Origin: Candidatus Jordarchaeia archaeon | Lineage (GTDB): Archaea; Asgardarchaeota; Jordiarchaeia; Jordiarchaeales; Jordiarchaeaceae | DNA length: 23,884 nt | Reading direction: 5' to 3' | NCBI GenBank assembly: GCA_029856435.1 | Contig: JAHQXB010000097.1 | Span: 1 to 23,884 of the forward strand | Translations under genes and position numbers: made by a program | The notes under the pieces: generated by a model | Seen by the model: the letters and a program-made list of their open reading frames with translations, nothing else | Database searches by the model: none | Told to the model about the DNA's origin: nothing | In this document: positions 7,985 through 14,576 of the stretch, piece after piece | How the letters are laid out: each line of letters begins with the position of its first letter | Numbering within the stretch: position 1 is the first letter of the stretch

Positions 7985-8640
7985 AAAAGATACCACCAAA
8001 ACCATTACCTATCATAATCCACTATTAGAGTGATTGATGATGATAAATGCTTCAAAGTACATAAAAAATCTTTCACATCTTATAAACCATTAGGAGCAAG
8101 CCTCACAAGTTACATAAATGTTTTCATAGGAATTCTTTTGCGTCTTATGGCATTATCAATTATTTATATTTTGCACCCCGTAGCCTCTCTCCTCCAGCTG
8201 TTTCTTGTACATAAGACCAGAAGTCTGCATTTTTGAATCCCTTCTTATTACCCCATAGTGATTCTCTAGAAATTTGACACTTGTCACAACTGAAGTGAGG
8301 ACTTGCTTCGCAAATGGTTCCAGAAAAAAGCTTAAGAAGTAAGGAGAAACAGCGAAAAAACTTATATTAAGATAAAAAAGATGAAAAATATGTTATTTAT
8401 AGGCTTCATCGCTTAACTGGCAACTGGGAACAGCACTATTCCAAATTTCGCCGCCAGTGAGAATCACTCCTAAAATATATTCCTTCAATTTTTCTTTAAA
8501 AAATCTGAGAACCTGAAAGGTTGGAGAAACTTTTTCCATTGAAACATGCTCAAACTTTTTGCGAAGACGCTTTTTTGGGGGAATTCACCTTTTCCAAGAA
8601 AAAAGAAAAGTGAGGATTAGAATTGGTTATTTTATCTACA

Positions 8641-8900
8641 CTTCGCAAGAAGACCCCTTCCGAAAGGGAGGGGATGAATTGCGGTTAAACTTAAACAACT
8701 CTTACAATCTAAAAAGTTTTTGGAATGTTCCCTTACAGAAAATACGACAGAGACCTGAATGCGTGTGTAAAAATAGCCCATAGGGTAACGAGCTCTATGG
8801 GATGGGGGAGCCGTGAGCCCCCCGAACCAGCAGATGAGGAGATGGGCGTAAAGCCTACTCTAAACGCTGGAAGCCCCGTCCGTTAGGGCGGGTAGCTCAC
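8641..8900 (+). mobile_element. Non-autonomous, internally deleted IS200/IS605-family element (both ends plus tnpB 3' remnant)
   Basis: Left-end hairpin CCCCTTCC-GAAA-GGGAGGGG (8654-8673), enclosed by CGCAA/TTGCG (8644-8648/8679-8683). Right-end hairpin CCCGTCC-GTTA-GGGCGGG (8875-8892), followed by TAGCTCAC ending in TCAC (8897-8900). A TnpB C-terminal motif lies between them. The left boundary is approximate. Confidence 0.8.
8746..8886 (+). pseudogene. tnpB: tnpB C-terminal remnant
   Basis: Manual translation gives DRDLNACVKIAHRVTSSMGWGSREPPEPADEEMGVKPTLNAGSPVR*. DRDxNA is the RuvC-III motif of TnpB. The rest of the gene is missing. An in-frame ATG at 8725 would give only 53 aa. Confidence 0.82.
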
Positions 8901-8920
8901 GTACCGAGTTAACCTTTAGA
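8746..8920 (+). ncRNA. Putative TnpB omegaRNA/reRNA scaffold plus flank-derived guide (8901-~8920)
   Basis: Stems at 8777-8783/8795-8801 and 8804-8811/8817-8823, and the right-end hairpin at 8875-8892. The loop GTGA (8813-8816) is complementary to the terminal TCAC (8897-8900), giving a pseudoknot. The 5' end is unknown. Confidence 0.55.
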
Positions 8921-9381
8921 TCAGAAGAAGGATGCCTATTAATACAGTAAGGGCTGGGGCTTGAGTTATTACTAACCGGGTTTCCAGTAACTGCATGTCC
9001 CGCTTCTCTGCTTGTTATCTCTATTATACCCACAATACACATAAGCTCGTGAAATGTTTACTCTGTCCGGTCTCACATTTCGATGATAGAAACATTCGCC
9101 GCAGGTTTTCCCATTAAATTCCTCAAAATGTCGTTATTATGATTAAGTTTCTATAAATGGGAGGTAAGGAATATTTCCACGTGTGCATTGTTAGGTTCTC
9201 TGGTTTAGAATTTTTGAAAGTAGGGCTTGTTTAGAAAAAGGGTTTTCGGTGAGGAAGAGGCGGGTGATGTAGAATCGTTCGATTTCGCCTCAAAAAGGGG
9301 TGTTTATAGGGCTTCTTTCACGATTTGGAGCCTTATTAGGGAGTTTGAATCGAATAAATCTGCATCACCGGAAGAGGCGCT

Positions 9382-10419: not shown

Positions 10420-11595
10420 TCAAATTGACATCAAGTCATCTACAAGCTCAACGAGGTCCTTAACCTCAGGATAGTTTTTATCAGGGTCTGAGGAGTCCTT
10501 GAAGTTTAATTCACAGAAGGGACAGGCTGTTAAAAGCAATTTGGCCCCCGTGGTTTTCGCTTCTTCTAATCGTTCTTTAGCAGACCAGAGGGCGAAATCA
10601 TTAAATGCTGCTTTGACACCCGCTCCAGCTCCACAGCACCACGAATTATCCATTTTTCTGTCCATTTCCACCAGTTTAACCCCCGGGATGGCGTTTAATA
10701 TTTTTCTTGGCTGATCGTATATGCCTGCAAGTCTTCCCAGGTGGCAGGGATCATGATAGGTGACTATTTGACTTAATTCTTTAAACTTTATTCTTTCGTT
10801 TTCCAAGAGTTGGGAGAGAAACTCCACCATGTGCTGAATCTCAAAATTCAGTTTTCCTCCAAGTTTAGGGTATATTGATTTGAAAGTCTCATAGCAACCG
10901 GGGCAGACAAAAAGTAGTTTCTTTAACCCGGACTCTTCTATTTTTTTCAAATTGTGTTCCATAAGTTCCCGAGCCTTGGAAGCCAGACCCACTCTGTATA
11001 GTACTCCTCCACAACAGTATTCCTCGTCCCCTAGTACTTTGAATTTTATGTTGAACTTTTTTAGTATGTTTACTGTGGCATTGGCAACGTTAGGTAACCT
11101 GTAGGGAATGGTGCAACCGATGAACAAGCCTATTTCTGCTCCCTCCCCTTCTTTGTCTTCTTGGGGTAACCATTTGAATCTGGCTTCGTGTGGTTCGCCA
11201 TAGGGGTTGTGGTACCTTTCTATGTTTTCAGCGAATTTTTTGTGCTGTTCCAAGGGACCCTTACCATCACTTACACACTTGAACCTTAATTCTTGGAGAA
11301 CTTTTAGAGGCTCCATTTTTGCTTGGTTGCGCCTGCAGGTTACTTCACAACCTCCACAGAGGGTGCAGGCATATATTATTTCTAAGAGTTTACTGCTGTA
11401 GTCTAACTCGCCTCTTAGTAGAGCTCGGGCGATGTCCATACGGCCCTGTGCAGAATAGGCGTCGAAAAGAAACTTCTTTAGGCTGGGACAGACGTAGCTG
11501 AATTCTGCGTTTTTAACGTCCCAGTCGCAGACCCATTTGCATCTTGAGCATCTGAAACAGAGTTCTAGAATTGGTTCACATTCTTCAAGGGGCAT
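10420..11595 (-). CDS. (Fe-S)-binding protein, HdrD/GlcF-like (2x[4Fe-4S] plus two CCG domains)
   Basis: CFRCSRCKW...CPS, CTLCGGCEVTC, EYCCGG, VCPGC, TYHDPCHLGR, WCCGAG and ACPFC. Confidence 0.9.
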   Translation of the reverse strand: MPLEECEPILELCFRCSRCKWVCDWDVKNAEFSYVCPSLKKFLFDAYSAQGRMDIARALLRGELDYSSKLLEIIYACTLCGGCEVTCRRNQAKMEPLKVLQELRFKCVSDGKGPLEQHKKFAENIERYHNPYGEPHEARFKWLPQEDKEGEGAEIGLFIGCTIPYRLPNVANATVNILKKFNIKFKVLGDEEYCCGGVLYRVGLASKARELMEHNLKKIEESGLKKLLFVCPGCYETFKSIYPKLGGKLNFEIQHMVEFLSQLLENERIKFKELSQIVTYHDPCHLGRLAGIYDQPRKILNAIPGVKLVEMDRKMDNSWCCGAGAGVKAAFNDFALWSAKERLEEAKTTGAKLLLTACPFCELNFKDSSDPDKNYPEVKDLVELVDDLMSI

Positions 11596-11607: not shown

Positions 11608-13041
11608 CTAAAAGCAGAGTTTTCCGGGGTTCATAATGTTGTTGGGGTCGAAAACCTCCTTAATCTCCTTTAAAATCCGGGCATAAGCCAAGTTTCTCTG
11701 GTAAGTAATTTTTGATAGGAATGAACCGTAGGGTCTGGAGAAAAAGGCCCCACCATCAAACAGACATTCTACGAGTTTCTCATAAGTCTTCTTAATCTTC
11801 TTTAACTGTTTATCATTGTTGGAATCGTAAAAGAACGTGAATTCCATGTGGCAGGCACCACCCCTCACTAAAGGTTGAATATAGCAGCCCACTTCGTCCA
11901 TAGGGTAACCAAGTTCCGAAGAGATTTTCTCCACAACCTCAAAGTGGTGTGGGGTCTTATCGAGTGTGGTGACGAAAAATATGTCTTGGAAATCACCCTT
12001 CCACATCTGCTTCCAGTACTCTCCCTTGCAGGATTGGCGGAGCATTAATAGGACCTTTTCTTCTAATCCCTCCAGTCTGGTTGAAGGCTCAACACTGAAT
12101 CCCCTTAATATTTCTAGAAAATCTTCTTCCTCCTGCTTTAATTTTTCCTCTGGAAGTTTCACACCTCCCGAAAGGCAAACAATCAGAATCCAACGAGCCA
12201 GCTTATGCCTCAAAACCTCTATTTCCGATTTTCTGTCGGCAAGAATAGTTGCCAAATCTAAATCGTTTAGCACTAAGCACTCGTAACCTAGCAGATACCT
12301 CTGAATTTCATATAAGGGGTCTACCAGTTCCTCTAGACTGTTTGAGGACAGGAAATATAGTTTATCAAGCTTGGGAAGATGCTCTATTTTTACGGTGGCG
12401 CTGGTAACTATTCCCAACGTTCCCTGTGCACCCTGAAAAATTTGGTTCCAGTTCAGTCCAGGCCCGAATGGTACCACATATTCGGCAAATTTACTGGGCT
12501 TAACTGCTGCGGAGCCTGTTCGGAGAATTTCCCCTGTAGGCAAAACTACCTCCATGGTTAGTATGGGCTCATAATACTCAAGTTTTGGTACGAGCAAAGG
12601 CTCCCTTTCAAGATAACTGGTCAACACAGATTTCCTCTCGGGAACACAGAGTGGGAATAGGGGCAGCAACCCCTTTTCTTTTAGGCTTTCAAACTGGGAA
12701 AATGTTACCCCAGCCTCAATAGTGGCGTTTTTGTTCCTATCATCGAATTTAACTATGCGGTTCATTTCACTTAGGTCAACTATAATTCCCCCATCCGCAG
12801 GAATAGTTCTTCCGTAAAAGTGCACTCCCGAGCTGCTGGGAACTAGGGGAATTTTGTGCTTATCGCAGAACTCTACAGTTTTTTTAACCTCCTCCACAGT
12901 CCTTGGCTTGCAGATGCACATGGGCACTCTTCTTGGCTCTAAACAACTTTTATCCGCTGAGTGAGAATTTAATGCGCTGGGGGTTCTTATGATATGCTCC
13001 CTGCCTAGAATTTGTTCCAGTTCCTTTACCAATTTGGACAT
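11608..13041 (-). CDS. FAD-binding oxidoreductase, VAO/PCMH (GlcD-like) family
   Basis: P.TVEEV, IIVDLSEMNRI, ATIEAGVT, MEVVLPTGEILRTG, QGTLGIVT and the C-terminal FDPNNIMNPGK. RBS GGTGA; 12 bp from the downstream gene. Confidence 0.88.
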   Translation of the reverse strand: MSKLVKELEQILGREHIIRTPSALNSHSADKSCLEPRRVPMCICKPRTVEEVKKTVEFCDKHKIPLVPSSSGVHFYGRTIPADGGIIVDLSEMNRIVKFDDRNKNATIEAGVTFSQFESLKEKGLLPLFPLCVPERKSVLTSYLEREPLLVPKLEYYEPILTMEVVLPTGEILRTGSAAVKPSKFAEYVVPFGPGLNWNQIFQGAQGTLGIVTSATVKIEHLPKLDKLYFLSSNSLEELVDPLYEIQRYLLGYECLVLNDLDLATILADRKSEIEVLRHKLARWILIVCLSGGVKLPEEKLKQEEEDFLEILRGFSVEPSTRLEGLEEKVLLMLRQSCKGEYWKQMWKGDFQDIFFVTTLDKTPHHFEVVEKISSELGYPMDEVGCYIQPLVRGGACHMEFTFFYDSNNDKQLKKIKKTYEKLVECLFDGGAFFSRPYGSFLSKITYQRNLAYARILKEIKEVFDPNNIMNPGKLCF

Positions 13042-13052
13042 GGGTTCACCCT

Positions 13053-14576
13053 TCAGGTTTTTGTGATGTCTATGGGGTATGGGGGGTTAGAGACATTGTT
13101 GGGGTCGAGTTTCTTCTTAATTTTTCTTAACAGTAATTGATAGTTACCGTAAGAGGGCCCTAGAATTTCGTGAGCCGGCCCCGCGGAGCCCGTGACATAC
13201 ATTTTCTGCTCTGCGTCCTGCCTTATGCCAACGTTCTGACACTCCATAGCTTCGTCCAGATGGGTTAGGGGGTCGTAAAGTATGCTGAGTTCAATGTGGC
13301 CATAGTGTCCAAGCTCCAAGGGAATCATATAGTAGAAGTGAATGAAGTCGGGGTACTTTTCCTCTAGAAAAGCTTTAGCTTGCTTAAGCTGGTCCAAGAG
13401 TTTATCAAGAGACTCAGCCCAGGATCTAAAAACATCGTAACCGCCCATAGGGTTGAGTATGCGCATTGAAACAGCGCTCCTTATCGTCTCGGGAATTCCT
13501 TCCTGAAGCGATTCAACCATCTCGTCTGGTATAAGGTATCCCTTATTTTCCTCAACAATTTTTTGTAAGACTTTCCTGTCGTACTCCATTACTCTAGGAG
13601 AAGTTTTGAAACTCATGAACAGAATGAACTCCTTTATATCCTTAAAGGCTTCAAGGAGACTTAGGAACTCCTCTCTACTTTTTGCCATGGGAGCCATAGC
13701 CATTGTGGTGCTCAAGAGGTGTAGTGACATACCAATCTCAGCTCTACAAATCTCATATAAAGCGTTAACTGCATCTTCAGTGCTGGGAAATATGGCCAGG
13801 TAAAGCTTTGCTAAATCTTTTGGAAATTCAACCACCTTTTCAGGAAACACTCCCCTACAGTGAAAGGCGTCTGGGCCCGTCCATGGATACAGTCTAACAG
13901 CCATCTTTGTAACCACTCCCAGGCCCCCAAGTGCACCCACATAGCCCCTCATAAGTCCCCTCAGATCGGGACCCGGACCCTCACCCCAGAAATAATCGTC
14001 GCCATAACCAGCCGAACCCAGCTTTAGGATTTCTCCAGAAGGTAAAACCCACTCTACACCGAGTACTGCACGGGCATAGTAGGGGATTCTATGCATAGCG
14101 AAGTGTGAGCCACAGAAAAGGTGGTTGGCAAGAACAGAAGTGTTTCCGCCACTGGAAGGAACCGGAAGCCACAACCCCCTCTTCATGGCTTCGGCTTGAA
14201 GCTGGGTGTAGGTTACATAAGGCTCTATCACGGCGTATTTGTTTTTCTCATCGATTTTTAATATTTTATCCATTCTCTTAAAATCCAGAATTATTGTTTC
14301 GGGATATGTGGCTTGGCAACTCCAGTGCAGGAAGCTTCCAACAGGTATGAAGGGAACCTTATACTTATTTGCCATTCTCACAATGGCTTGAACTTCTTGC
14401 ACAGAACTGGGCAAGACCACAAAGCCAGGTCGTCTCTTCAGCTTTCGACCCAGAATCCAGCCCGTTCTTGAGTACGCCTCTAGAACAGCTGGATCATCTG
14501 AAACATAATCTGGCCCCACAGTTTCTTCAAGCAGCTCATAAATTAATTGGTGGTCAACAGGCAAGGTTTCATTCAC
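13053..14576 (-). CDS. FAD-binding oxidoreductase, VAO/PCMH (GlcD-like) family
   Basis: VLPSSVQEVQAIV, LDFKRMDKI, AVIEPYVT, VEWVLPSGEILKLGS, GALGGLGVVT and LDPNNVSNP. The start is GTG 14576 or TTG 14564; 11 bp from the downstream gene. Confidence 0.88.
   Translation of the reverse strand: MNETLPVDHQLIYELLEETVGPDYVSDDPAVLEAYSRTGWILGRKLKRRPGFVVLPSSVQEVQAIVRMANKYKVPFIPVGSFLHWSCQATYPETIILDFKRMDKILKIDEKNKYAVIEPYVTYTQLQAEAMKRGLWLPVPSSGGNTSVLANHLFCGSHFAMHRIPYYARAVLGVEWVLPSGEILKLGSAGYGDDYFWGEGPGPDLRGLMRGYVGALGGLGVVTKMAVRLYPWTGPDAFHCRGVFPEKVVEFPKDLAKLYLAIFPSTEDAVNALYEICRAEIGMSLHLLSTTMAMAPMAKSREEFLSLLEAFKDIKEFILFMSFKTSPRVMEYDRKVLQKIVEENKGYLIPDEMVESLQEGIPETIRSAVSMRILNPMGGYDVFRSWAESLDKLLDQLKQAKAFLEEKYPDFIHFYYMIPLELGHYGHIELSILYDPLTHLDEAMECQNVGIRQDAEQKMYVTGSAGPAHEILGPSYGNYQLLLRKIKKKLDPNNVSNPPYPIDITKT

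Follow-up and report, generated by a model that had tools for sequence, protein, structure and literature searches.

Positions 8630..8900 of the window, by which we mean the whole stretch of 23,884 nucleotides that was analysed from a Candidatus Jordarchaeia archaeon, hold a 271-bp element without a tnpA gene which, as far as its sequence tells, is a non-autonomous deletion derivative of a tnpB-only (IS1341-like) IS200/IS605 element, that is, a PATE or IS200/IS605 MITE (hereafter the mini). PATEs are gene-less IS200/IS605 derivatives and were first named in Haloquadratum walsbyi (PMC3119063). The mini and all features described below lie on the forward (+) strand of the window. The original prediction had described a mini IS200/IS605 element that lacks tnpA and most of tnpB while keeping both ends and a full omega-RNA scaffold, and this description was borne out; the stems, motifs and codons on which it was built were all found where it had placed them.

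Ends, promoter-like box and tnpB remnants

The left end carries a subterminal hairpin (8654..8673) with an 8-bp stem and a GAAA loop, followed by the conserved ATGAATTG, and both position and motif are kept in full-length relatives. A second subterminal hairpin at the right end (8875..8892), predicted to serve as the DNA site for TnpA and as the last stem of the RNA, shows compensatory changes in seven of its seven pairs among relatives, and its stem in the window copy is one G short. The stems of the two hairpins are closely alike, the element being bordered by these subterminal imperfect palindromes in place of terminal inverted repeats. Their geometry is asymmetric, with 24 nt between the left boundary and the left hairpin and 8 nt between the right hairpin and the right boundary.

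Between the hairpins lie the remains of the tnpB gene. The TATA-like box (8691..8697), which probably belonged to the old tnpB promoter, is situated 5' of the tnpB start and about 50 nt 5' of the RNA scaffold; it reads TTAAATA in the family and TTAAACA in the window copy, the TTAAATA form being conserved, in the same position, among full-length relatives as well as the other minis. Tandem TTAAAC boxes (8685-8696) had been pointed out here, and while a promoter-like box is indeed present upstream, the tandem boxes proved private to the window copy, the family box being the TTAAATA at 8691-8697. Scans for sigma-70 promoters and for terminators were dropped as uninformative for an archaeon.

The tnpB remnant itself is in two parts. 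The start remnant and deletion junction (8733..8741) read TTG-CAG-AAA in other copies, with TTA as the first codon here, and align with the (M)QK start of intact relatives. This start codon and the two codons after it are joined at about 8741 to a tail that begins ...YDRDLNA, so that of the earlier claim that only a ~155-nt tail of tnpB is left, the tail stands and the word 'only' does not. On translation, the DRDLNA codons (8746..8763), the third RuvC motif of the deleted tnpB, match the YDRDLNA(C/S)(I/V)NIAH of intact TnpBs. In the window copy the TATA box is weakened (TTAAACA) and the start codon mutated, the latter being irrelevant to an RNA. A 53-aa ORF (8725-8886) is open in the window copy and in two others, and is broken by indels or stops in the copies on contigs C21, C36, C88, C136, C57 and C69.

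Copies, boundaries and insertion site

The genome searched is a 3.54-Mb MAG of 181 contigs with a completeness of 97.8%, in which the smallest contig measures 5,036 bp and repeats break contigs. A blastn search with the region, which had been suggested as a check for copies with different flanks, recovered at least 11 mini copies that are 95-98% identical and have unrelated flanks. Counted by right ends, these amount to 11 loci (C158, C127, C36, C21, C136 (= C174), C78, C101, C57, C69, C140 and C15), although up to five of the right-end copies lie at contig ends and are not demonstrable as minis, with just three left-end fragments to match them. Several copies with unrelated flanks and no conserved ORF are what is expected of a PATE/MITE-like element, and the mini presents at least 11 loci and a 53-aa frame that is mostly broken.

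When the copies were aligned with 40 nt of flank each, similarity began at 8630 and stopped at 8900. Position 8630 is the point at which nine copies cease to align, and nine left ends share the same internal deletion junction. All ten left ends found in the genome are preceded by TTTAT, and the right ends of all copies terminate in (T/C)TCAC. In the window, this target or transposon-adjacent motif (TAM) occupies 8625..8629, in host DNA outside the element.

Two congeners provided empty sites. Sequences in G003 (contig C219) and G004 (contig C568) align to both sides of the element at 82-85% identity and precisely lack the insert; their junction reads ...GGTTATTTTAT|GCACCGAGTTGAC..., or TTTAT|G(C)ACCGAG..., with TTTAT occurring once and joined straight to the right flank. 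These alleles, a search for which had formed part of the original prediction, established TTTAT as the TAM and confirmed 8630 as the left boundary. An extent of 8641-8900 (~260 bp) had been proposed earlier; the right end held, while the left boundary had to be moved to 8630 on the strength of the copy alignment and the empty sites. No target duplication is present in the empty site of either congener. Since TTTAT and the right flank are directly joined in both, insertion appears to have taken place 3' of TTTAT in IS200/IS605 style, and a precise empty site without duplication bears the signature of single-strand transposition as IS200/IS605 elements perform it.

Mini copies were not found in the five congeners, where one weak covariance-model match in G004 was the only trace of the RNA family, nor did these genomes yield a TnpB of the mini's clade at E <= 1e-40. 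The absence of the element from congeners suggests that the family is specific to this lineage.

Two copies are longer than the rest and were considered as intermediates between the mini and a full-length element. The extra 179 bp of the C78 copy was rejected as such, being a nested, unrelated ~180-bp MITE with an 8-bp duplication. This separate repeat (C78 ~423-601, locus L008) has about 13 copies of 90-93% identity and is flanked by the 8-bp direct repeat TGTTCCCT. The extra 107 bp of the C16 copy was rejected likewise, as it corresponds to an abundant 106-bp MITE. A MITE of this ~106-bp type is also present in the window at 9263-9371 and has about 90 or more copies in the genome, mostly 93-98% identical, plus diverged relatives. 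It is missing at the orthologous site in G003 and G004, where the flanking matches overlap by about 9 bp, consistent with a target duplication.

Structure and covariation of the omega-RNA scaffold

By homology with intact tnpB elements, the putative omega RNA of the mini runs from the 3' end of tnpB through the right end, with the transposon boundary as its limit. Counted from stem 1 to this boundary, the scaffold measures about 125 nt, and the mini retains the whole of it together with about 30 nt upstream. The region corresponds to no Rfam family in gathering and E-value scans. The predicted fold of 8725-8920 is stabler than that of shuffled sequences (z = -3.4, 0/200).

Conservation of the structure, scored as four stems plus the pseudoknot, was assessed in an alignment (A1) of 18 sequences, in which the 155-nt 3' part of six minis was combined with twelve relatives from five other genomes and two relics. 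In this alignment 89.9% of cells were paired as against 73.6% in shuffles, and the covariation score was reached by none of 500 shuffles. Controls in which the partners were slid by one to three columns gave 35-49% pairing in A1, with an overall maximum of 52%. A covariance model built from A1 retrieved 41 sequences (alignment A4), in which 28 of 41 pairs showed compensatory changes. The conservation of stems and pseudoknot, which had been put forward as something to be examined by covariation, was thus upheld.

Stem 1 (8777..8801) comprises nine pairs, six of them with compensatory changes, and 92.5% of its cells are paired in the 41 sequences; in the window it forms seven perfect pairs, or nine to ten if G-U is allowed. 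Stem 2 (8805..8823) is made of four G-C pairs, a bulged A8809 and one more pair, shows compensatory changes in three of five pairs (for instance, column pair 69/78 is CG in 17 sequences and GC in 15) and holds in its loop the pseudoknot strand 8813-8818. A bulged G5/C5 stem had been drawn at 8804-8823; such a stem is present, and the register that covariation supports best pairs 8805-8808 with 8820-8823 and 8810 with 8819, leaving A8809 as a bulge. Stem 3 (8827..8870) consists of an outer helix of five pairs, 98% paired with three of five pairs compensatory, and an inner bulged hairpin. In the inner helix seven of nine pairs show compensatory changes, but a register that differs from clade to clade keeps the share of paired cells down to 78%.

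The last six transposon bases, GCTCAC (8895..8900), form the 3' strand of the pseudoknot and pair with GTGAGC (8813-8818), a partner site about 85 nt upstream; the right cleavage site would lie after TCAC. This terminal pseudoknot, correctly anticipated, is kept across relatives with 97.5% of cells paired, and two of its pairs vary on both sides (AU:24/GC:10/GU:5 and UA:22/CG:13). The variants are GAGC...GCTC in one clade and GAAT...ATTC in the other, and since the changes follow the two clades, just one or two events may account for them. RNAalifold proposed another partner for the 3' end, inside the DRDLNA codons (8752-8757), which fits about equally well.

Strong matches to the covariance model within the genome were solely minis, a relic on contig C23 or a relic on contig C141; the minis are the commonest form of the family and outnumber every full-length relative. 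The C141 relic (11392-11546, locus L047) is a 155-nt scaffold plus right end of a sister subfamily, without a left end; it appears to interrupt a radical-SAM-like reading frame, and its 5' limit falls within about 8 nt of the mini's deletion junction. Weak matches were also seen. One, on the minus strand of C68 (~650-1020), has the appearance of a further mini family without genes, featuring a left hairpin followed by GATGAATTG, a GTGAAC loop complementary to a GTTCAC terminus, and a right hairpin. The other (C20 11154-11307) is a tnpB tail whose right hairpin stem is the same as that of the window mini's left hairpin. A 4.7-Mb genome of the same phylum (G275; e.g. loci L084-L103) gave 49 matches to the RNA family. 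Of 20 that were inspected, most lie behind full-length or frameshifted tnpB genes, and several are 5'-truncated or internally deleted and keep 70-160 codons.

Origin from a full-length tnpB element

Over its first 111 nt the mini can be aligned to full-length elements at their left ends, through the hairpin, ATGAATTG, the TTAAATA box and GGGATGTTCCC to the start codon and (M)QK. Its 3' part is related to four full-length elements from metagenomes (loci L072-L075, recovered by an exact-pattern scan), which have intact TnpBs of ~400 aa and 3' DNA that is 82-89% identical; their homology to the mini starts at 8741-8743, and in the RNA region the best of them reach 88-89% identity. An intact 390-aa TnpB with an RNA region of 75% identity and a right-end hairpin identical to that of mini copies is encoded in G010 (L053), a genome from the same order. 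In a protein search, the 53-aa tail matched many TnpB proteins of 400-440 aa at 75-89% identity, and a TnpB homologue occurs in an archaeal virus record (P0120). Because both halves align with full-length relatives, the mini appears to be the product of one deletion that joined start-Q-K to ...YDRDLNA, and because the junction is common to all copies, amplification would have come after the deletion. We conclude from these alignments that the mini is derived from a full-length tnpB element by a single internal deletion.

A full-length tnpA/tnpB parent, which had been suggested as something to look for, did not turn up in the genome, whether the search was run with blastn or with tblastn using either C23 fragments or the G010 TnpB as query. 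It yielded a single full-length relative, the C23 relic (~12,750-14,040, minus strand; locus L061), a decayed tnpB-only element with 13 in-frame stops whose identity to the mini is 77% for the RNA region and 79% for the left end. An exact-pattern scan of genome contigs for a parent elsewhere gave nothing, and a parent of more than 95% identity was absent both from the metagenome scan, which gave the 82-89% relatives, and from the search with the 53-aa protein (at most 89%).

Partner nuclease and transposase

Searching the assembly by tblastn for an intact tnpB of the same clade returned none, only the C23 relic with its 13 stops. This absence is weak evidence, as the MAG lacks contigs below 5,036 bp and repeats break contigs. 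One intact-looking TnpB (431 aa) is encoded on contig C43; it shows 27% identity, and neither its RNA nor its right end is that of the mini. The original prediction of a trans-acting TnpB guide had itself named the lack of an intact cognate tnpB as the outcome that would count against it, and as a claim about the present day it was not supported, at the weight that such an absence can carry.

Two nearly identical tnpA genes for a Y1 transposase are located at contig starts (C166 58-489 and C58 2-352, both minus strand); their tnpB partners run off the contigs, which suggests a multi-copy tnpA-tnpB IS that the assembler did not resolve. The left ends of both share the layout of the mini's, with a target-like TTTAC, a ~20-nt spacer, a hairpin and then GGGGATGAATTG, while the hairpin itself differs. 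A link between these genes and the mini family was considered via a relative in G301 and was rejected, as the 84% identical TnpA of G301 pairs with a 440-aa TnpB of another clade. The two tnpA genes belong to an IS with a different TnpB clade, the target TTTAC and a different hairpin.

Guide-equivalent flanks and variation among copies

By analogy with TnpB omega RNAs, the putative guide of the window copy is the 3' flank GTACCGAGTTAACCTTTAGA (8901..8920), which is host DNA and intergenic. The guide proposed earlier, GTACCGAG..., is this same flank, and the empty allele in the congeners has TTTAT beside the orthologous flank. In a check that had been suggested earlier, no other TAM-adjacent match to 8901-8920 was present in the genome, and a second TAM-adjacent target was likewise lacking in the genome for every one of the 11 guides. 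The guide-equivalent of the copy at C57 (13828) lies in MITE-family sequence and has many near matches with one or two mismatches, because this copy adjoins a MITE; none of these is preceded by TTTAT.

Among the copies, the left part (111 nt) has 14 variable sites and the RNA part (160 nt) has 22. These are evenly spread, and some of the variants disrupt stem 2, the pseudoknot or the right hairpin. Extra constraint on the RNA part gave no signal in this comparison, which with 11 young copies has low power.

Discussion

We consider it probable that the element is a deletion-derived PATE whose RNA cassette is now an orphan, its partner nuclease having gone. An internal deletion that removed about 1.06 kb of tnpB, codons ~4 to ~357, would have fused the left end, TATA-like box and start to the last ~155 nt. 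The product would then have been copied to at least 11 sites, the likely agent being a Y1 transposase (TnpA) that acted in trans and inserted single strands 3' of TTTAT by 'peel and paste', with no duplication of the target. The family-conserved TATA-like box precedes the scaffold by about 50 nt, which makes a short promoter-driven transcript plausible, and the old tnpB promoter may have given rise to a leader, a scaffold of ~125-155 nt and a flank-derived guide. In the company of a cognate TnpB, such an RNA would direct cleavage of the emptied site (TTTAT plus flank), and repair from a sister copy would allow the mini to persist. The partner nuclease having gone from the assembled genome, save for a decayed relative, the cassette is now most likely decaying neutrally.

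There is a modest chance that the cassette is instead active as a stand-alone guide, the minis being transcribed and their RNAs loaded by a cognate TnpB supplied from unassembled or unbinned DNA, a plasmid or a virus. As a consequence, to which we give an equally restrained weight, a mini would be re-copied into its own emptied TTTAT site and would live as a guide-only parasite of TnpB. The complete scaffold and pseudoknot, the conserved TATA-like box kept just upstream of them and the predominance of minis over every full-length relative in the genome all point this way, as do intact TnpBs with RNA regions of 82-89% identity in environmental DNA and the homologue in P0120; the MAG moreover omits contigs under 5 kb, and Meers et al. 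propose exactly such use in trans for PATEs. An intact tnpB of the clade is nevertheless absent from 3.54 Mb at 97.8% completeness, and the five congeners lack the family bar the one weak G004 match. The changes that break stems and pseudoknot among the copies, the lack of excess conservation in the RNA part, and the weakened TATA box and shortened right-end hairpin of the window copy likewise argue against activity. Carried further, there would be a small chance that the minis are functional guide-only hyperparasites, some 11 promoter-driven omega RNAs being loaded by a TnpB from a virus, a plasmid or an unassembled IS, and that several unrelated mini families of this Asgard genome have converged on the same combination of promoter and scaffold.

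It is also conceivable, if quite improbable, that the mini is a plain transposition relic in which the 3' 155 nt were kept through a chance deletion endpoint and TnpA's need of the right end, the RNA never having mattered; this reading largely overlaps with that of an orphaned PATE cassette, from which it differs just on past use of the RNA. A single junction in all copies amounts to a single event, with no repeated selection of the endpoint within the family, variation is evenly spread along the element, and deletion derivatives of the same family in G275 keep tnpB from residues ~247, ~297, ~308 and ~335, all of which would fit a relic. (The same G275 derivatives were rejected as evidence for retention of the scaffold, as they had been chosen by a full-length RNA match and the argument would be circular.) The junction, however, falls within a few bases of the start of the conserved region and leaves promoter and scaffold intact; the independent C141 relic begins within about 8 nt of the same point; and at least one other mini family, that on C68, keeps its scaffold with the GTGAAC loop complementing the GTTCAC terminus. 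Exaptation, either as an RNA-guided regulator (TldR-like), as the original prediction had ventured, or as a small protein gene (the 53-aa ORF), is very improbable and largely refuted. The frame is open in the window copy and two others, and the guide-like flank is intergenic. Against this, most copies have a disrupted frame, congeners lack the locus, no nuclease-dead TnpB-like gene was found near the element, and a second TAM-adjacent target to regulate is missing for all 11 guides.

The reading as an orphaned PATE cassette places the mini within a known type of element. PATEs have also been noted in Geobacillus stearothermophilus by Meers et al. 2023 (PMC10055086), according to whom such elements often code for omega RNAs that depend on a TnpB supplied in trans; with that work, trans-acting guides from PATEs are already a published idea. 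As in PATEs, there is no protein gene, left and right subterminal hairpins are present, copies are multiple and mobilisation by TnpA in trans is presumed; in contrast to those described, the mini resides in an Asgard archaeon, of Freyarchaeia/Jordarchaeia going by the names attached to a protein cluster of the window, its scaffold follows directly on the former tnpB promoter and start codon, and an intact cognate TnpB was not found in the assembly of the window's genome. The omega RNA (reRNA) of ISDra2 from Deinococcus radiodurans, known from cryo-EM, has a 116-nt scaffold with four stems and a pseudoknot between -5..-3 and about -104 (PMC10097598). The predicted RNA of the mini resembles it in arising from the tnpB 3' end and right end, in stopping at the boundary, in its size and stems (scaffolds of ~116-125 nt, four stems), in a pseudoknot that uses the last few transposon bases, in a guide taken from the 3' flank and in a target motif 5' of the left end. 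It differs in the pseudoknot partner, which lies in the loop of stem 2 at ~83-88 nt from the end in place of -103..-105. The likeness to ISDra2 is one of layout, sequence similarity not being claimed, and for the mini binding and processing are predictions only. The TAM of ISDra2 is TTGAT, as against TTTAT for the mini. With full-length archaeal IS1341-type elements (L053 in G010, L072-L075, and L058 in G272) the mini shares the left-end layout, TATA-like box, TnpB tail, RNA scaffold, right-end hairpin and TCAC terminus; those elements have an intact TnpB of ~390-420 aa, whereas the mini lacks codons ~4-357.

Current understanding of such elements is unchanged by this locus, which is a well-documented example of an element type already described and carries modest weight as such. 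It offers an exact empty site, a defined TAM (TTTAT) and a covariation-supported RNA family absent from Rfam, and may be of use as a test case for the trans-loading of TnpB by PATE-borne guides, as a compact scaffold/TAM pair for related intact archaeal TnpBs, or for tracing recent transposon activity in Asgard genomes of the Freyarchaeia type. Should the minis turn out to be guide-only hyperparasites, a gene-less element of 271 bp would gain RNA-guided homing for free. As it stands, the mini is a natural example of the modularity of IS200/IS605 elements, in which 271 bp keep what TnpA would need, namely the ends, and what TnpB would need, namely the promoter, the scaffold and a guide from the flank.
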